Assembly: GCA_963717145.1 (NCBI GenBank)
Contig: OY970325.1
Location: forward strand, 1,568,001 to 1,632,000
DNA from: an uncultured Armatimonadetes bacterium
Lineage (GTDB): Bacteria > Armatimonadota > UBA5829 > DTJY01
Length of the DNA: 64,000 nt
Reading direction: 5' to 3'
The position numbers were made by a program, and so were the translations under genes. Positions 8,648 through 46,240 of this stretch are shown here, piece by piece. The stretch's first letter is position 1; each line of letters begins with the position of its first letter. The notes below the pieces were generated by a model. The model had not been told where the DNA came from, searched no databases, and saw nothing but the letters and a program-made list of their open reading frames with translations.

Positions 8648-10060
8648 CTAACCCGCGATTTTTCGCAACTCGGCCTGGGCGTCTTTGTTATTGGGATCGA
8701 TCTCCAGCGTCTGGCGGAAAGCTTCGGCTGCCTCGGCAGTCATCCCCTTGTGCAGGTAGCATCGACCGAGCTTGAAGTAGGCATCGGTGTAGTTGACATC
8801 CTTCTCCACCGCGCGCTTGAGTAGCGTGATCGCAGTATCCCAGTCGTTCTCGCTCGAGAAGGAAGCAGCCTGCGTGTACAGCTCCTTCGGATCTGCGGTC
8901 GTTATCGGACCACCGCTCTTTCGCGCAGCCTTCCAAGGCATCGCCGGCGTCGGCACCCACGTCTTGTAGACGCTCTGACGCAGAGCATCCACTACGCCGG
9001 TGCGACGAGAACTGTTGAACGCAAAGCCGGCGACACCGTTCGTACCCTTCTCCCTGCTCTCCTTGATCTGAGCGATCAGCGTATCCGTGCTGCCGACACT
9101 GATCCCGTTATAGGCATGGCGGCTATGCGCCCACTTGACCATAGCTGCGGTCCACTCGCTGAACAGCTTGGCTTCGTCAGGGCTGGTCTTGTAGTTCATC
9201 GGCACCACCGCATCGATGATACCCTCTCTCGTCCAGCGCTCCCAATCCTGAAGCAGCATGTTGTACGGATGGGTATCCTTGAACTGCTCCTTCATCGCCT
9301 GGCTGCAGACCGTTGATCCGGTCACCTTGACCCACGGCTTGAGAGCCTTTGTGCCCTCGTAAATCTGCCGAACGAGATCGGTAACGCGGTCGCGCCGCCA
9401 CTGACACCATTGCGGATCGTCAGTGAACGGTGCGGCCTTGGTACCTTTCTCCTTCTGATACCTGGCGACGGCCAGATCGGAGTAGCCAAAAGTTGGGTCG
9501 TAGTAGCGCACGTAGTCGAAATGGATGCCGTCGACGTCGTACTTCTTGACGACATCCAGGTAGATCTTTGCCGTATAGTCCTGCACCTCGCGAATGCCCG
9601 GGTCGAGCTGGAACTGCCCGCTCTTGTCGAGCCGGCCCTCATTGGTGCGATTGATCCACTCGGGGTGCTTGTTGAAGACGTGGCCGGGGCTCTTCGGACG
9701 CCTGGTGCCCTGCCAGACCTTGTAGGTATTGATCCACGCGTGGATCTCGAGTCCGGCCGCATGCCCCCTCTTGAGGGCGTATGCCAGCATGTCGAAATCC
9801 GGATCCTTCAGGTTTTCGGCCTTGGGCTCGTAGGCAGAATCGTAGTACGAGTCGCCGGCCTTCCGGACCTGTATGAAAAGCGCATTCAGGTTCGCCTTGC
9901 GCGCCATGTCGATTGTCTCGTCCACCTGCTCAGGCGTGAGCAGGCCGTTCTCCCAGGCCGATACCCACATGGCTCGAAACTCCGGCTTCTCCTGACCCCA
10001 TGCCATGGAGCACAGGCAAAGAAGACCAACGATGGCAGACAACACCGCTCTGTTAATCAC
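8648..10060 (-). CDS. Glycosyl hydrolase-like 10 family (YddW/DigH-like) protein with C-terminal TPR
   Basis: EFRAMWV, LNALFIQVR, GLEIHAWIN, LDPG, YDVDGIHFDYVRY, QDW..W motifs; TPR at the C-terminus; GTG 10060 after GGAGG. Confidence 0.85.
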   Translation of the reverse strand: MINRAVLSAIVGLLCLCSMAWGQEKPEFRAMWVSAWENGLLTPEQVDETIDMARKANLNALFIQVRKAGDSYYDSAYEPKAENLKDPDFDMLAYALKRGHAAGLEIHAWINTYKVWQGTRRPKSPGHVFNKHPEWINRTNEGRLDKSGQFQLDPGIREVQDYTAKIYLDVVKKYDVDGIHFDYVRYYDPTFGYSDLAVARYQKEKGTKAAPFTDDPQWCQWRRDRVTDLVRQIYEGTKALKPWVKVTGSTVCSQAMKEQFKDTHPYNMLLQDWERWTREGIIDAVVPMNYKTSPDEAKLFSEWTAAMVKWAHSRHAYNGISVGSTDTLIAQIKESREKGTNGVAGFAFNSSRRTGVVDALRQSVYKTWVPTPAMPWKAARKSGGPITTADPKELYTQAASFSSENDWDTAITLLKRAVEKDVNYTDAYFKLGRCYLHKGMTAEAAEAFRQTLEIDPNNKDAQAELRKIAG

Positions 10061-10339
10061 ATATACCTCCAAAGTACCAGGGGAAACTCATCAATCGCGG
10101 AATGTGGTGACCACACTCACTCAGAAGTTTGACCTGCGTCGGGTTGATTCCTTCCCAATGCGGGCATATACACTATGGCAGAGACCGCCTGCTCTCTTGA
10201 ACGGCACTAGCAGGCCTGCTTAGAATGCATGAGTTGCGCCTCTCCCATTCTTAGACGCAGCCCGAGCGCCACTTGTGCACAATCCCGGAATACAATATAC
10301 TAAGAACAGCCTCAGAGACACCGGGACAAGGTGATTCAC

Positions 10340-11710
10340 ATGCGTACCAGGTTTTTCAAAGCTACCCTCATACTGAGCATCCTCGGCGCGATGCTCTCAA
10401 CCGGACTGATCGCCGCCAAAGCCCGATTAGCGCCCCATCAGCTCACAATCTTTTTCACCGGCGATGATTGGGGCAAGTACAAGTACTGCATATGACACAA
10501 TGAACTGGGCCTCGGTGGGGCCCCTAGACTGGCTACGTATCTTCGGCAGACGGCAGCGGCCGTTCCAAATCGCCTCGTCATCCATCTTGGCGACATGATA
10601 ATGGACGCCGGGAAGCCCGGCGCAATCCAACTCGACTTCTACCGTTTTGCGTTGCCCTACATGGGTTACGATATGGCCGGGATCGGCGAACTCGAGGTTC
10701 GCGCGTACAAGTACGTTGACGAGCAGTCGATCGCCGACTTGGGCGTGCCTCTGGTCTGTGCGAACGTTCTTCGGGAAAAGGACGGCAAACCACTGGTCGG
10801 TAAGCCCTATATCATCAGGAAGATGCCATCCGGGCTGCGCGTTGCTGTGATCGCCGTCGTTGGCGACGCAATTGTATATCCCGACCTGCAGAAGGAGTAC
10901 GGGGTCCGGGTACTACCACCTGCCGATGTCCTCAAGGCGAACATGGAGAAGCTCAGGAAAGAGGCCGACGTAATCGTCGTGCTGGCGCATGTCACCTATG
11001 ACGGCGCGGTCGCACTCGCCTCGCAGGTTCCCGGGATCGACGCGATCCTCAGCAGCCACCCTTCAACCGTTAAGAAGGATTACGAGAAGGTCGGAGATAC
11101 CGTCGTCATGCACTGCCGGAAGGACTATCAGTACGTCGGCAAGCTCACACTGGACATCAGTGCCGACGGCAAGATCACATCGTCCGCCGGAGAGCAGGTT
11201 CCACTGAACGACAAGCTCGCCGACGACGCGGAGATCGCCAAGCTGATCGAGACTGCTGACAAACGACGATCTGACCACTACGACAGAATGGCCAAGGAGC
11301 AGACCGCTCTGCTGAATGGCATTCAGACCGAGTTCCCACGGTTCGTCGGCGGTGGTCAGTGCGCGAAGTGCCACAAGGATATCGATAAGTCGTGGAAGAA
11401 GACAAAGCATGCCAAGGCGCATGATGCGCTGAAGGGAAAAAAGGACCCGAACGCGTTTCGCAACCCATACTGCCTGTCCTGCCACACAACCGGCTTCGAC
11501 CTGGAGAGCGGATTCAGTCGTGAAGCGTTGACGCCGCACCTGAAGAACGTGCAGTGCGAATCGTGCCACGGGGCCGGCTCCCTGCACGTTCAGAAGCCTA
11601 AGGAGCCCGGATACGGCAAGATTTCCGACGCGAATTGCCTCCGGTGTCACGACAGAGGCAATAGCCCCGACTTCGAGTACGAAAAGTATCTTGCCCAAGT
11701 GCGACATTAG
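10340..11710 (+). CDS. Putative selenoprotein: signal peptide + UshA-like metallophosphoesterase-fold domain with C-I-U + tetraheme cytochrome c domain
   Basis: ATG 10340 is in frame with ORF 10595..11710; single TGA at 10493-10495 (codon 52) in ...TGDDWGKYKYCI*HNELGLGGAPRLAT...; CxxCH x4 (CAKCH, CLSCH, CESCH, CLRCH). Confidence 0.88.
10507..10523 (+). promoter_or_regulatory. Candidate bacterial SECIS hairpin 1
   Basis: GGGCCTC-GGT-GGGGCCC begins 11 nt after the in-frame TGA. Confidence 0.8.
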
Positions 11711-11809
11711 GTGTACAATAGAAGGTGTTGTTCCGGCGATATATCGCCGGGGTAACCCGTGGGCACGCCACGCGCGCAATACATACATCATTCCGGACGG
11801 TCAATACTC

Positions 11810-13252
11810 ATGAAAGCAAGATTCTGCAGAGCCGTTATCTCGACGTTCCTCCTTGGTGTGATGATGCTTACGTCGGGCATCGTCGCCACTCGCTCCATGG
11901 CGGGGAAGGCGAAGATCACCCCAGGCCAGTTCACCATCTACTTCACCGGCGACGACTGGGCCGGCTACAAAGGTAGCTGTGGGTGACACAGCGAAGAGGA
12001 TCTCGGTGGGATCCACAAAAGAGCAACCTATCTGAAGAAGGCGCTGGAAGCCTCGCCCAACCGACTTCTCATTGATCTCGGCGATCTCGTGCCGGGACTC
12101 GGTGAGCCGGCGGAGATCAAGCTTGGCCTATACAAGACGGCGCTGCCCGCCATGAAGTACGACGTGATCGGCGTAGGCGAACTGGACGTGCGCACTATCA
12201 AGGACACCGGCAAGTCGCCCTTCGATAGCGCCAAGATCCCGCAGATCTGCGCGAATCTGGTGCTCGAAGACACGAAGAAACCGCTCCTCAAGACACCTTA
12301 TGTCATCAAGGAGATGCCGAGCGGCCTGCGCGTCGCGGTCATCGGCATCATAGGCAATACGACGATGAACCCCCAGATGGCCAAGCAGATGGGTGTCATA
12401 ACCATGCCGCCGGAACAGGCCGTCCGCAAGGCTATCGGATCCCTCAAGGGCAAGGCAGACATCTTTGTCGTGCTGGCCCATTCCGGTTACGATGAGGCCA
12501 AGAAGTTGGCCGAGGCTGTCTCGGGCGTTGACATCGTTCTGAGCAGTCACCCGTCGGCCGTTACTACCGACTTCGAGCGCGTGGGCGATAATATTCTCAT
12601 GCACTGCAAGGGAAACAGCAAGTACGTGGGGAAGCTCGTGCTCGACATCGATGCTGACGGCAAGATCACCTCGGCGACCGGCACTCAGGACCTTCTGGAC
12701 GCCAAGACTGAGAAGGACCCGGCGATGCAGAAGCTCATAGATGATACCGAGGCGGCCGTTCAGAAGTTTTACTCGAGCCAGAACCCCAGGGTCGGCGGAC
12801 CTCCTATGACCGGCGACGCATCGCCCCCACGCGAGGACCCCAGGCCGTTCGTCGGCGCTCAGAGATGCATTGGATGCCACTTGTCCATTCACCAAACATG
12901 GCAGAAGACCAAGCATGCCCAGGCGTTCGCGGACATGACCCAGAAAGACCCCAACGCGACGATGAACCCTCATTGTCTCTATTGCCATACAACCGGCTAT
13001 ATGGTCAACGGCGGCTACACGACCGAGACCGAGACTCCCCACCTGCGCAACGTACAATGTGAGTCGTGCCACGGACCCGGCAGCAAACACCTCCGCAACA
13101 CCCAGGAGAAGGGGTACGGCGCTACGACCGAGCTGACATGCCGCAAGTGTCACGATGGCGCCAACAGCCCGAAGTTCGACTACGCGAAGTACCGAGAGAA
13201 GATCGTTCACAAGGCTGCCTCACAGATTGTGAAACCTGCAGAGCAGAAATAA
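11810..13252 (+). CDS. Putative selenoprotein paralog 2: signal peptide + UshA-like domain with C-G-U + tetraheme cytochrome c domain
   Basis: ATG 11810 is in frame with ORF 12089..13252; single TGA at 11984-11986 (codon 59) in ...TGDDWAGYKGSCG*HSEEDLGGIHKRAT...; CxxCH x4 (CIGCH, CLYCH, CESCH, CRKCH). Confidence 0.9.
11998..12014 (+). promoter_or_regulatory. Candidate bacterial SECIS hairpin 2
   Basis: GGATCTC-GGT-GGGATCC begins 11 nt after the in-frame TGA; same geometry as hairpin 1 with compensatory changes. Confidence 0.8.
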
Positions 13253-13272
13253 CGTCTGCACTAGTAGGCGTG

Positions 13273-13305
13273 AACCAGAGGCTTCCCCTGGGAAGCCTCT
13301 GGTTT
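13273..13305 (+). terminator. Strong hairpin after the selenoprotein pair (possible terminator)
   Basis: AACCAGAGGCTTCCC-CT-GGGAAGCCTCTGGTT; only a short T tail. Confidence 0.55.
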
Positions 13306-13316
13306 GCCGCACAATC

Positions 13317-14495
13317 ATGGAAAAAAGGACCATCCTAATGTCATTCTCTCGCGCCACTCGCCAACTCGTCATCGTGCTCATGATGCTCATCCTGGCGTCG
13401 TGCGCCTCTGCCTATGCGGACAGCTTCAAGGATGAGGTCGACATGGGCAAGGAGGGGGCCGCCGAGGTCGCGAAACAGAGCAAGTTTCTCACTGACGAGA
13501 AGCTGGTCAAGCGAGTGGAGACGATCGGTGACGCGATCGCGACCGTTGCCGTCTCTCGAGAGGTCCCGGCGTCCTACGGCAACTCGAAGCTCGCGCCGTT
13601 CAAGTACACTTTTCAGATCATCGACGACAAGGATGTGAACGCATTCTGCCTGTCGGGAGGCTACGTCTATGTGAACAAGGGTCTGCTCGACTACGTTCAG
13701 TCCGACGACGAACTCGCAGGTGTCATGGCCCATGAAATCGCCCACGCATCCCATCACCATATCATGCAGCTCGTCAAGGAGCAGAACAAACAGATGCTGA
13801 CCATGGCCATCGCAATCCTCGCCGGATATGCGATCGGCGGGGGACAGGGGGTAAGCGAGCTGGCGATGGGAGCGAACCTCGTGGCAATCGCAAAGATGAG
13901 CGCATACGGTCAGAAAGCCGAGAACGACGCCAACGTTACGGCCGTCGAATACATGACATCCGCGAAGTATAACCCCGTCGGGATGCTGACGTTCATGGAG
14001 CGGCTCGCCCGCGATGAGGTCCGCAAGCCATACATCGACTGGGGCATCTACCGCACTCACCCGCCTTCCTACGAGCGAGCGAAGGCGATCTCCCAACAGA
14101 TTGAGAAGAACGGCATCAAGGTGAACCGCCGCCTGGTCACGAGCTACCTCAAGGTTACTCTGAAGCCGGACGATGAAAAGGACCCCAAGTCGGTGCAGAT
14201 ATCGGTGGCGGACATGCCGATCGTCAAGCTGGCGGACTCCGGCGGAGTGAAGGCCCAGGCGCGTGCGGAGGCAGTGGCGAAGATGATCGACGCCGCTTTC
14301 CTTGCAGGGGCCCAGATGCGTGACATCAAGATGGGCATCACCGGAAGGTACGTCAAGATCAAGGACACGATCGTCATCGAGCCGACTCAGGAGGACGCCG
14401 ATCTTGCCGGTGTCACGATCCAGAAGGTCGCGGCCGATGCGGCGAAGTCACTGCGCAAGGTACTCTGGCAGGAGCAGTTGGACGCGAGCTACTAG
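13317..14495 (+). CDS. M48-family zinc metallopeptidase, secreted
   Basis: DVNAFCLSGG, SDDELAGVMAHEIAH (HExxH), THP motif; start may be 13338. Confidence 0.88.
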   Translation: MEKRTILMSFSRATRQLVIVLMMLILASCASAYADSFKDEVDMGKEGAAEVAKQSKFLTDEKLVKRVETIGDAIATVAVSREVPASYGNSKLAPFKYTFQIIDDKDVNAFCLSGGYVYVNKGLLDYVQSDDELAGVMAHEIAHASHHHIMQLVKEQNKQMLTMAIAILAGYAIGGGQGVSELAMGANLVAIAKMSAYGQKAENDANVTAVEYMTSAKYNPVGMLTFMERLARDEVRKPYIDWGIYRTHPPSYERAKAISQQIEKNGIKVNRRLVTSYLKVTLKPDDEKDPKSVQISVADMPIVKLADSGGVKAQARAEAVAKMIDAAFLAGAQMRDIKMGITGRYVKIKDTIVIEPTQEDADLAGVTIQKVAADAAKSLRKVLWQEQLDASY

Positions 14496-42701: not shown

Positions 42702-43082
42702 ATGCGAATTCCCGATGAGATAAGATTCGATTCCGACGGGTTGGTCCCGGCGGTCATACAGGACGCGGAAACCGGGCAGGTGCTGATGCTCGGGTTCATG
42801 AACCGCGAGTCGCTCCAGCGGACGCTCGATGAAGGCAAGGTCTGCTTCTGGAGCCGCTCGCGGAACAAGTTTTGGCTCAAGGGTGAGGAATCCGGCAACT
42901 TCCTCCTCGTGAAGGGCGTCTATGCCAACTGCTATGCCGACTCGCTACTCATCAAGGCCGAGCCGGTCGGCCCGACCTGCCATGCCGGCTACGATAGCTG
43001 CTACTACCGGCAGTTCACCGAGGATGGGCTCCAGGTGATCGCCGAGCAGGTCTTCGATCCGGCGGAGGTCTATAAGAAGTGA
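42702..43082 (+). CDS. hisI: Phosphoribosyl-AMP cyclohydrolase
   Basis: GLVPAVIQD, FWSRSR, WLKGEESGN, GPTCHAG..SC. Confidence 0.92.
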   Translation: MRIPDEIRFDSDGLVPAVIQDAETGQVLMLGFMNRESLQRTLDEGKVCFWSRSRNKFWLKGEESGNFLLVKGVYANCYADSLLIKAEPVGPTCHAGYDSCYYRQFTEDGLQVIAEQVFDPAEVYKK

Positions 43083-44581
43083 GAACGGCGACGAAGACCC
43101 GGAAGGCTGTCATTCTGAGCGCAGTGAAGAATCTGTCTCCGTGGGCCAGATTCTTCACTGCGCTCAGAATGACAGCCTTCCGCACAGGCATGGTTAGCGC
43201 ACTCGCAGTCCTTGCATGTGCGGCTGCGTGGGCGGCACCGGAGTACCGGGGCATTACCATACTCCACACGAACGACACCCACGGGCATCTGCTCCCCTTC
43301 AGTTTCGCTAAGCAGGTCAACCCGAAGGATAGCATCGCATCGATGCCTCACATCAGGGACATAGGCGGGATCGCACGCCGGGCCACGCTCGTTCACCGGA
43401 TCGAGGCCGAGTGCCGGGGGAACGTTCTGCTCCTCGACGCGGGCGATGCGCTCGACGGCACGCCCTTCTCCATCGAGTACATGGGCGAGGCCGATTTCGC
43501 CGCGATGTCGGCGGCCGGATACGACGCGATGACTCCCGGCAACCATGAGTTCAGTGCCTCGTACGACGAGTTCAACCGCAATGTCAATACGGCGACCTTC
43601 CCCATCGTGAGCGCCGATATCGTGGACCGGAAGTCAGGCAAGCTCGCCCTTCCGCCGTACACGATCTTCGAGATCGATGGCGTAAGGATTGCGGTCTTCG
43701 GGCTGACCGTCCCTGTCCCCAACTACCGAGCCGCGAAGGAAGGCTTCGACTTCCTCGATCCGATCCAGGCGGCAAAGGAACTGCTCCCACAGCTTCGAGA
43801 GAAGGCCGATGTCGTCATAGCGCTGTCCCACCTTGGCGTCGTCGACGACGAGCAATTGGCCCGCGAAGTGCCGGGGATCGACCTGATCGTGGGCGGGCAT
43901 TCGCACACGCGGCTGGCGAAACCTCTGTTCATCAGGACCAGGGAGCGGGAGGCATTCCGGATCGGCGGGACTCTCATCGTGCAGGATTACTGGTGGGGTG
44001 GCGAGTTGGGGCGGCTCGACCTCCGGCTCAGGCGCGACGGCGGGCCATTCACAGTGATGGGCTACGACGGCCGGCTGCTCCCGGTGACCGCTGACATCCC
44101 TGATGATCCCGAGACGAAGAAGGTCGTCGATCGCTACTATCGGCCGATCGCGCGGAAGTACGACGAAGTCATCGGGGAGACATCGGAGACTCTCTACGCT
44201 GGGCCCAAGCTGATCCGCCTGGTATGCGATGCCATGCGGGAGGCGTCAGGGGCGCAGATCGGCGTCTACGGTGGGCTGCGAGGCGATCTCCTTGCCGGCA
44301 AGATCAGGGTCTGGGACATTGCAGTTATGCTGCCCTTCAGGAACAAGTTGATGACCGCCGAGATCGCCGGAGGACAGCTTAAGCAGGCGATGAAGGCTCA
44401 TGGTCTCTTGTGTTCGGATATCGGAGAACCGCTCGACGATGACACGACCTACACCATCGCCACGGTCGACTTCTACCTGGGCAACGCTCTCAAGGATGCC
44501 AAGCCGATCAAGACCATCGCCGATGATTACCGCGACTCGGTGATCGCCTACATCAAGACTCTCGGGACAATCTCACCGTAG
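43079..44581 (+). CDS. Bifunctional metallophosphatase/5'-nucleotidase (UshA family)
   Basis: HTNDTHG, DAGD, GNHE, LSH, GGHSH plus C-terminal domain; alternative start 43190. Confidence 0.9.
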   Translation: MRTATKTRKAVILSAVKNLSPWARFFTALRMTAFRTGMVSALAVLACAAAWAAPEYRGITILHTNDTHGHLLPFSFAKQVNPKDSIASMPHIRDIGGIARRATLVHRIEAECRGNVLLLDAGDALDGTPFSIEYMGEADFAAMSAAGYDAMTPGNHEFSASYDEFNRNVNTATFPIVSADIVDRKSGKLALPPYTIFEIDGVRIAVFGLTVPVPNYRAAKEGFDFLDPIQAAKELLPQLREKADVVIALSHLGVVDDEQLAREVPGIDLIVGGHSHTRLAKPLFIRTREREAFRIGGTLIVQDYWWGGELGRLDLRLRRDGGPFTVMGYDGRLLPVTADIPDDPETKKVVDRYYRPIARKYDEVIGETSETLYAGPKLIRLVCDAMREASGAQIGVYGGLRGDLLAGKIRVWDIAVMLPFRNKLMTAEIAGGQLKQAMKAHGLLCSDIGEPLDDDTTYTIATVDFYLGNALKDAKPIKTIADDYRDSVIAYIKTLGTISP

Positions 44582-44674: not shown

Positions 44675-46240
44675 ATGCCCAGATTCACCAGGCTCTGTAT
44701 TCTCTTACTGATTGGCATCGCCGTCCGCGTGCCGTCGGCCGCCCAGGAATATCGTGGGATCACGCTCCTCTACACGAATGACATCCACGATCACCTGCTG
44801 CCATTCAGCTACCCGGATCCGCCGAACAACAGCCTGGGTTATTCGAAGATGAAGGCGATCAAGAACATCGGCGGAGTGGCGCGCATCGCCACGTTGATCG
44901 ACCACGTCCGTCAGGAGACCAAGGGCAACACGCTTGCCTTCGACGCCGGCGACCTGCTCGAGGGAACTCCTCTCACCATCGAGTATCATGGCGCGGCCGA
45001 CTTCGCCGCGCTCTCAGCCGCCGGGTACAATGCGTTCGTTCTGGGCAACCACGACTTACAGGTATCGCTCGACCAGTTGCACAAGAACATCAGCATGGCC
45101 TCGTTCCCTGTGGTCTGCGCGAATGTAATCGACCGGAGAACCGGCAAGCTCCTCCTGCCGCCATACGCGATCTTCACGGTGCAGGATGTCAAGATCGCGG
45201 TCCTCGGCGTGACAGCCGACGGCGTCGCGGACGGACTGAAAGCCGTCAAGGAGGGCCTGACGGTCACCGATCCGGTCGCCGCCGCCAGGGAGTACGTCCC
45301 CAAGCTCCGCGAGCAGGCGGACCTCGTGGTCATCCTGAGCCACATGGGAGTCGGCGAGGACAAGAAGCTTGCGAAGGACGTTCCCGGCATCGACGTGATC
45401 TTCGGCGGACACTCGCACTCGTGGCAGAAGGAGCCGATCCTCGTCAAGAACCGCGACTGGGAACCGTTCCGCATAGACGGCACGATCAGCGCATACTGCT
45501 ACGAGCACGGCGGCGAGCTTGGGCGATTGAACCTCCGGCTGCGAAAGAACAACGGCCGGTTCGAGATCATGGGCTTCGACGGCGGGCTGATTCCGGTCAC
45601 GGCCGACATCCCCGACGATCCGAAGACTGCCAACGTGATCGACAGGTACTACAAGCCGATCGCACATCTGTATGACGAGGTCGTCGGTGAGGCCGCAGAC
45701 ACGTTCTTCAACGATCGCGCGGGAGAGAATACAATGCTCAACCTGATCTGCGATGCCATGAAGGAAGTCACCGGCTCGCAGGTCGCGGTCTTCGGTGAGG
45801 CGGGATGCCGGGGGGATGTCATCGCCGGCCCGGTCAAGGTCTGGGACCTGAGTCTCGTGATGCCGAATCCCTACAAAATGGTGACGATGCGGATCACCGG
45901 CGCGCGGCTGAAGGAGCACCTGGCGCTCCGCATCCCGGGCGTCTCCGCCGGGATGAAGTACAAGGTCGTCGGAGCGACTGCCACCGAGAGCCCGAGGAAA
46001 GGCCAGAGGGTCGGCACGATCGCCGAGTGTACCCTCGACGGCAAGCCGATCGACGACAACGCGATGTACACGCTCACGACCCACGAGTGGTTCCTCCAGC
46101 TTTTCTTCAAGGACATCACCGACGCAAAGATACTCGATCTGGACTGCCGCGGTGCGGTGGCGGAGTACTTCAGGAGACACAAGGTCGTCTCGCCCGTGAG
46201 GGATGGACGGCGCGACGTGGAGAGGGGCTTGCTCGGATGA
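44675..46240 (+). CDS. Second UshA-family 5'-nucleotidase, secreted
   Basis: YTNDIHD, DAGD, GNHD, LSH, GGHSH; tandem paralog of the upstream gene. Confidence 0.9.
   Translation: MPRFTRLCILLLIGIAVRVPSAAQEYRGITLLYTNDIHDHLLPFSYPDPPNNSLGYSKMKAIKNIGGVARIATLIDHVRQETKGNTLAFDAGDLLEGTPLTIEYHGAADFAALSAAGYNAFVLGNHDLQVSLDQLHKNISMASFPVVCANVIDRRTGKLLLPPYAIFTVQDVKIAVLGVTADGVADGLKAVKEGLTVTDPVAAAREYVPKLREQADLVVILSHMGVGEDKKLAKDVPGIDVIFGGHSHSWQKEPILVKNRDWEPFRIDGTISAYCYEHGGELGRLNLRLRKNNGRFEIMGFDGGLIPVTADIPDDPKTANVIDRYYKPIAHLYDEVVGEAADTFFNDRAGENTMLNLICDAMKEVTGSQVAVFGEAGCRGDVIAGPVKVWDLSLVMPNPYKMVTMRITGARLKEHLALRIPGVSAGMKYKVVGATATESPRKGQRVGTIAECTLDGKPIDDNAMYTLTTHEWFLQLFFKDITDAKILDLDCRGAVAEYFRRHKVVSPVRDGRRDVERGLLG

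Follow-up and report, generated by a model that had tools for sequence, protein, structure and literature searches.

Two tandem genes (A and B) in a 64,000-nucleotide (nt) stretch of DNA from an uncultured Armatimonadetes bacterium each contain one in-frame UGA followed by a 17-nt hairpin, which is very probably a compact bacterial selenocysteine (Sec) insertion sequence (SECIS) that directs Sec insertion at that codon. The source genome is a single contig of 5.37 Mb with 60.6% G+C, and the stretch analysed (the window) corresponds to its positions 1568001-1632000; coordinates are those of the window unless a genome position is given. The SECIS reading, which rests on sequence comparison, draws together the Sec machinery of the genome, the alignment of the UGA with Sec or Cys codons in homologues, covariation in the close clade, a peptide that does not force the hairpin, the specificity of the hairpin for Sec sites, a geometry shared with Escherichia coli fdhF and with FdhA of the same genome, and the criteria of the bSECIS model. 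The features of the locus are:

10340-11710, + strand: gene A, 456 amino acids (aa), UshA-like (5'-nucleotidase-fold) domain and C-terminal tetrahaem cytochrome c554-like domain
10493-10495, + strand: UGA of gene A, codon 52, in frame, predicted to be read as Sec in a C-I-U-H motif
10496-10506, + strand: spacer A, 11 nt from the UGA to hairpin A
10507-10523, + strand: putative SECIS hairpin A, GGGCCUC / GGU / GGGGCCC, 7-bp stem and 3-nt loop
11810-13252, + strand: gene B, paralogue of gene A, 480 aa
11984-11986, + strand: UGA of gene B, codon 59, in frame, predicted to be read as Sec in a C-G-U-H motif
11987-11997, + strand: spacer B, 11 nt from the UGA to hairpin B
11998-12014, + strand: putative SECIS hairpin B, GGAUCUC / GGU / GGGAUCC, 7-bp stem and 3-nt loop

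A preliminary description of this DNA had reported 17-nt hairpins exactly 11 nt after each TGA with a 7-bp stem, a common U-G pair and a GGU loop, and it was correct in every detail. The distance from the UGA to the loop start is 18 nt in both hairpins. At stem positions 3 and 4, hairpin A has G-C and C-G where hairpin B has A-U and U-A, so that, as the description had also stated, two pairs switch with pairing kept while the encoded peptides differ (GLGGA and DLGGI). On folding, both stretches formed the 7-bp helix with the 3-nt loop in the minimum-energy as well as the centroid structure, with energies of -12.3 (A) and -8.9 kcal/mol (B) in a 43-nt context and -11.5 (A) and -7.4 kcal/mol (B) for the 17 nt alone. 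Counting both strands, the genome contains 152 hairpins that combine a 7-bp stem with a GGT loop. Only four lie 11 nt after a TGA: two are hairpins A and B, and the remaining two come after TGAs that are out of frame and whose frames are full of stops.

Each gene forms one open frame only when its single TGA is read through (translation with TGA = U), and the two resulting proteins are 45% identical. Both have an N-terminal hydrophobic, signal-like segment upstream of the TGA and their catalytic and haem domains downstream of it. The C-terminus of each carries four CxxCH motifs and is cytochrome c554-like (Pfam Cytochrome_C554, E 8e-18 for gene A), and the closest solved structure to the 5'-nucleotidase/UshA-like domain is 3ivd (E 2e-27). 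The T-G-D-D of both proteins aligns with the T-N-D-x-H metal motif of 5'-nucleotidase structures, and the CxU (C-I-U in A, C-G-U in B) sits between T-G-D-D and a conserved Gly-Gly. The top NCBIfam match of both proteins was NF041198, UshA-like (seleno)protein (A: 228.9 bits, E 1e-67; B: 246.3 bits, E 6e-73), which matches each protein in two stretches; one family profile spans each TGA. The curated 275-bit cut-off of this equivalog (UshA_like_PCGU) was not reached by A, B or any other match genome-wide. The CxU feature of the family is found in both proteins, with Y-C-I-U instead of P-C-G-U in gene A. Orthologues of gene B in two genomes of the same family (69% and 65% identity) contain one TGA each.

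We considered whether the TGAs are true stops, in which case the genes would be split or decaying and the hairpins unrelated to decoding, for example pause or stability elements. TGA is indeed a common stop here, terminating 851 of 1975 long open reading frames (ORFs) with high third-position G+C (GC3), and standard-code ORF calling cuts both genes at their UGA. This reading is nevertheless extremely improbable: in a six-frame comparison the gene frame had the best coding signal on either side of both TGAs, a single family profile runs across each, the signal-like N-terminus precedes and the catalytic and haem domains follow it, and an aligned TGA is present at 102 sites in many lineages, alternating only with Cys codons. 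Since TGA is an ordinary stop in this genome, a reassigned code is not the explanation either. The genome has a complete Sec machinery, and Sec decoding is possible: profile matches above the cut-offs were found for selB (383 bits), selA (567 bits) and selD (392.5 bits), the selD gene itself contains one in-frame TGA, and a tRNA-Sec (anticodon tca) adjoins selA.

The aligned positions in homologues bear on both the UGA and the hairpin. We took homologues from 401 genomes of the phylum (133 with a match), 11 genomes of the family (8 with a match), and metagenome and species-representative contigs (80 loci each), and chose loci by conserved peptide patterns unrelated to the hairpin. The 174 sites aligned to the UGA comprised 102 TGA, 52 TGC and 20 TGT, with TGA recurring across many lineages and swapping only with the Cys codons. 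Three sites were dropped before folding (short flanks or an N), and 101 Sec and 70 Cys sites were kept. We then applied a structural descriptor requiring a stem of at least 6 bp, at most two G-U pairs and a 3-7-nt loop starting GG, with the following result:

Sec sites (101): 80 with the descriptor; loop at +18/21 in 29, at +25/28 in 51, at both in 0
Cys sites (70): 4 with the descriptor; loop at +18/21 in 2, at +25/28 in 2, at both in 0

One of the four descriptor-positive Cys sites, L061, has UGC where the Sec orthologue L062 from the same genus has UGA, and both loci (L061, 2677-2715, - strand; L062, 2680-2718, - strand) keep a perfect AGACCUC-GGY-GGGGUCU hairpin. The pair looks like a very recent Sec/Cys switch in which the SECIS was retained.

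The geometry of the two hairpins resembles that of known elements. Comparison with the fetched E. coli K-12 sequence bore out the likeness to fdhF that the preliminary description had drawn: in fdhF as in genes A and B, a 17-nt hairpin comes 11 nt after the UGA, and its loop starts with GGU at 18 nt. The fdhF 17-nt element, 11 nt from the UGA, was reportedly defined experimentally as the minimal SECIS by Liu et al. in 1998. The fdhF element has a 4-nt GGUC loop and a bulged U in its 5' arm, and its spacer pairs with downstream sequence to form a lower stem; hairpins A and B, by contrast, have a 3-nt loop and a U-G pair adjacent to the closing pair, and they lack a conserved lower stem. The FdhA gene of the same genome is like A and B in its UGA, 11-nt distance, 7-bp stem and loop starting GGU, and unlike them in its 5-nt GGUCU loop and unrelated stem sequence. 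As summarised in a 2026 selenoproteome review (PMC13188914), the bSECIS model of Zhang and Gladyshev specifies a loop of 3-9 nt, a stem of 4-16 bp, a G in the first two loop positions, a UGA-to-loop distance of 16-37 nt and an energy limit of -7.5 kcal/mol. By this summary, hairpins A and B lie within the model with their 3-nt loop, 7-bp stem, GG loop start and 18-nt spacing, and hairpin A is clearly within the energy limit. They also agree with its further expectations: they lie within coding sequence directly 3' of the in-frame UGA, the UGA aligns with Cys or Sec, and SelA, SelB, SelD and tRNA-Sec are encoded in the genome.

In the close clade, all seven pairs form in the same register at 14 of 14 Sec sites (12 distinct sequences), so that 84 of 84 paired cells in the clade alignment are paired. 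Four of the seven stem pairs show double-sided changes (GC/AU, GC/AU, AU/GC/GU and CG/UA), and the covariation score was 0.294 compared with 0.164 in shuffles; none of 500 shuffles matched the observed pairing, the double-change count or the covariation score. When the 3' arm was slid by 1-3 columns as a control, pairing fell to 25-69%. The peptide itself does not force the hairpin: with the codon usage of the genome, only 0.3-6.3% of synonymous back-translations gave a perfect hairpin (1.4% for A, 3.0% for B). Third bases within the stem are invariant, namely the C of the Leu codon and the G of the second Gly codon (GGG accounts for 22% of Gly codons in this genome), while that of the Gly codon in the loop varies among U, C and A.

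Because the element lies inside coding sequence, the stem couples codons U+5 and U+9 and fixes the third bases of Leu (CUC) and of the second Gly (GGG). The coupled codons are GGC/GCC (Gly/Ala), GAU/AUC (Asp/Ile), GAC/GUC (Asp/Val) and AGC/GUU (Ser/Val), a pairing of residues that appears to be RNA-driven amino-acid covariation. The CUC-GGU-GGG core itself is made up of the codons of Leu-Gly-Gly, whose Gly-Gly is also kept by Cys homologues and by solved 5'-nucleotidases, so the invariant inner pairs, including the U-G pair, are partly forced by coding and are not independent evidence of selection on RNA. The apparent RNA selection rests instead on the outer pairs and the invariant synonymous third positions. 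The preliminary description had argued for selection on RNA structure rather than protein; the pairing at all clade sites, the covariation and the specificity for Sec sites uphold this, but the weight it placed on the shared CUC-GGU-GGG core was overstated.

Several observations weigh against the SECIS reading. Energy is one: the z-scores of -0.07 (A) and -1.45 (B) are unexceptional relative to dinucleotide shuffles, of which 86 of 200 (A) and 21 of 200 (B) folded at least as well, and hairpin B is borderline with respect to the bSECIS limit at -7.4 kcal/mol alone (-8.9 in context). Since these z-scores do not separate the hairpins from chance, we used position and covariation as evidence instead. 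Cys homologues also fold fairly well, the stretch being G+C-rich and coding for Gly and Arg, and energy discriminates poorly between the classes (mean best-hairpin energy -14.13 at Sec and -13.05 kcal/mol at Cys sites; one-sided Mann-Whitney p = 0.004). The homologues are mutually related, and their counts overstate the number of independent events. Both hairpins are perfect helices without the bulged U of fdhF, their inner three pairs and loop overlap the conserved Leu-Gly-Gly codons, and an Rfam search of window positions 10000-13500 at E<=10 returned no SECIS family, only chance-level matches to unrelated eukaryotic and viral models.

Some of these points would be expected if the hairpins were a by-product of coding, with a conserved Leu-Gly-Gly whose G+C-rich codons are self-complementary by accident and play no part in decoding. 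The Leu-Gly-Gly content of the core, the stable hairpins of the Cys homologues and the unremarkable energy z-scores all favour this explanation. It does not account for perfect pairing at 14 of 14 Sec sites where a few per cent would be expected from the peptide, for invariant synonymous third positions and four covarying pairs within the stem, or for a GG-loop hairpin at 80 of 101 Sec but 4 of 70 Cys sites, and a diverged Cys orthologue (L037) retains only four of the seven pairs. We regard a coding by-product as very unlikely and return to the SECIS reading.

The spacer length has a ready explanation in the ribosome, whose mRNA tunnel hides ~11 nt (PMC4513850). With the UGA in the ribosomal A site, ~11 nt of downstream mRNA would be inside the tunnel, and the hairpin would be placed just at its entrance. 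SelB-GTP with its Sec-tRNA(Sec) cargo would use its C-terminal winged-helix domain to bind the apical GGU loop and, competing with release factor 2, would deliver Sec; the UshA-like and tetrahaem parts of the protein would then be translated. Binding of SelB to the GGU loop and actual read-through are what we infer from the sequences.

The position of the loop in homologues (loci L067-L226 are homologues of genes A and B) suggests a further feature of the family. The hairpin lies in one of two registers, either at +18 (or 21) over the Gly-Gly codons, as in this clade, or at +25 or 28 over Ala-Arg-Arg-Ala codons, and no site among the 101 Sec sites has both. We tentatively propose, with somewhat less than even confidence, that the UshA-like CxU family uses two mutually exclusive SECIS registers, between which the element moves in hops of ~10 nt while the protein motif stays fixed, with the covariation of U+5 and U+9 as its consequence here.

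We also asked whether UGA-N11-(7 bp, CUC GGU GGG) holds as the SECIS consensus throughout this genome, as had been suggested for locating its other selenoproteins. Selenoprotein genes were sought with a dicodon coding score in a 60-codon window on both sides of every in-frame TGA, and candidates were checked by NCBIfam. With 784 candidate read-through sites, a codon-only coding score was too noisy; a dicodon filter of 35 codons, which was stricter, was dropped because it lost genes A and B themselves. Comparison of 14 candidate read-through ORFs with NCBIfam gave one family across the TGA in FdhA and PrxQ only; eight were adjacent genes or could not be assigned. FdhA is identified by TIGR01591 (883 bits), whose match spans the UGA. 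Five selenoprotein genes are family-confirmed (FdhA, PrxQ, SelD and the UshA-like genes A and B), and three further ones are supported by a TGA conserved in relatives: a CarboxypepD_reg protein, a coiled-coil protein and a TlpA/ResA-like protein. Their loops, and the distance from the UGA to the loop start, are:

UshA-like A: loop GGU, start 18 nt after the UGA
UshA-like B: loop GGU, start 18 nt after the UGA
FdhA: loop GGUCU, start 18 nt after the UGA
SelD: loop GGUUC, start 32 nt after the UGA
CarboxypepD_reg protein: loop GGUUC, start 21 nt after the UGA
Coiled-coil protein: loop GGUCA, start 21 nt after the UGA
TlpA/ResA-like: loop GGUCC, one stem mismatch, start 24 nt after the UGA
PrxQ: loop AGUUUC, start 16 nt after the UGA

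Seven of the eight genes have a loop starting GGU, at 18-32 nt from the UGA, and FdhA agrees with A and B in the 11-nt spacer, the 7-bp stem and the GGU loop start; both facts speak for a consensus. Spacing and stem are not shared, however, with loop starts at 18, 18, 18, 32, 21, 21, 24 and 16 nt, loops of 3-6 nt and the deviant AGUUUC of PrxQ. The exact pattern occurs four times in the genome, twice out of frame; a genome scan for TGA-N11-hairpin found no in-frame site besides A and B and no enrichment at the 11-nt spacing. A covariance model built on the clade hairpin (R1) matched genes A and B only in the genome at E<=10, leaving FdhA undetected, with 150 of 4556 first-look candidates scored. 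The strict form is already contradicted and we consider it improbable; an organism consensus holds only loosely, as a loop starting GGU. The expectation that known selenoprotein genes would carry the same hairpin held for the spacer and stem length of FdhA, while SelD, PrxQ and the three other genes differ in spacing.

As a search tool, the exact pattern and model R1 recover only A and B, but a loosened descriptor (a GG-starting loop 16-34 nt from the UGA on a stem of 6 bp or more) is usable together with a coding filter. By itself this motif follows 1987 of 167463 TGAs (1.19%) and control trinucleotides alike (1.16-1.26%), and it is present at four of the five family-confirmed sites. When coding signal on both sides was required as well, seven of 247 sites were left: four in confirmed selenoprotein genes, two in the CarboxypepD_reg and coiled-coil genes, which have support from relatives, and one candidate. 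The TlpA/ResA-like gene was found by the coding scan alone, as its one stem mismatch fails the descriptor. At genome position 895305 (- strand, outside the window), an in-frame TGA with two-sided coding signal precedes a 7-bp hairpin whose loop is GGAGGC; this site could be due to chance.

For the CarboxypepD_reg and coiled-coil genes, no NCBIfam family spans the UGA. The CarboxypepD_reg protein (L016; genome 3494781-3495884, TGA at 3495213, + strand, outside the window) has the sequence K-P-G-G-U-G-P-Q-G-C (GGUGPxGC), and a 7-bp hairpin whose loop is GGUUC comes after its TGA. Relatives in genomes G020, G373 and G238, and three copies of the gene in G393, keep the aligned TGA, and a GGUC-type hairpin accompanies every one of them. 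The word 'carboxypeptidase' is absent from the main text of the 2026 review (PMC13188914), and this protein may represent an undescribed selenoprotein family. The coiled-coil membrane protein (L022; genome 4507383-4509176, TGA at 4507796, - strand, outside the window; A-G-G-T-U-S-G-A-S-C) is long and has no Pfam or NCBIfam family; its TGA is followed by a 6-bp hairpin with a GGUCA loop. An aligned TGA, in an AGG[T/G]U motif, is present at eight of eight loci examined across the class; the hairpin after each has a G-rich loop, which in most cases contains GGU.

The TlpA/ResA-like protein (L018; genome 3626904-3627518, TGA at 3627359, - strand, outside the window) has a thioredoxin (Trx) fold and a G-G-T-U-G motif, and its TGA separates the membrane anchor from the Trx domain; the protein has a normal CxxC as well. 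TGA is present in three genomes, its own and two of the same family, whose hairpins have GGU-containing loops; a more distant homologue has TGT. The PrxQ-type peroxiredoxin (L015; genome 3576443-3576970, TGA at 3576775, - strand; T-S-G-U) has one mismatch in its post-UGA hairpin and is the sole selenoprotein gene found here with a loop that does not start with GGU.

Around genes A and B, a perfect 18-nt palindrome at 11733-11750 (7-bp stem, TATA loop) begins 22 nt past the stop of gene A in the 99-nt gap between the two genes; no T-run follows it, and it may be either a stem-loop of the intergenic gap or a weak terminator. The window contains two more UshA/SoxB-like paralogues without an in-frame TGA, at 43079-44581 (+ strand; SoxB 172 bits, UshA 155 bits) and at about 44861-45550 (+ strand), and a Cys-type haem-fused paralogue with a C-N-C motif is located at genome 2702218-2703597.

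Published descriptions exist of the UshA-like CxU family (NF041198) as well as of the SECIS model, and the mechanism is an ordinary bacterial one. The selenoprotein families tabulated by the 2008 GOS selenoproteome paper (PMC2398784) include the UshA-like proteins (COG0737, CxU), which appear again in a table of the 2026 review (PMC13188914). Our findings leave the current understanding of Sec decoding unchanged. For this organism, recognition of the SECIS elements restores two full-length periplasmic UshA-like/tetrahaem selenoproteins that standard-code gene callers would otherwise truncate, and the loosened, organism-tuned descriptor is useful for retrieving its other selenoprotein genes. 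The locus is also a clear case of an RNA structure and a protein motif written on the same nucleotides. The most novel part is the placement of the SECIS in two registers within one family together with the coupling at the codon level. If this is true, the SECIS would hop along a self-complementary, G+C-rich coding stretch and impose RNA-driven amino-acid covariation wherever it is placed, and the triloop form would be a natural 17-nt minimal SECIS without bulge or lower stem.

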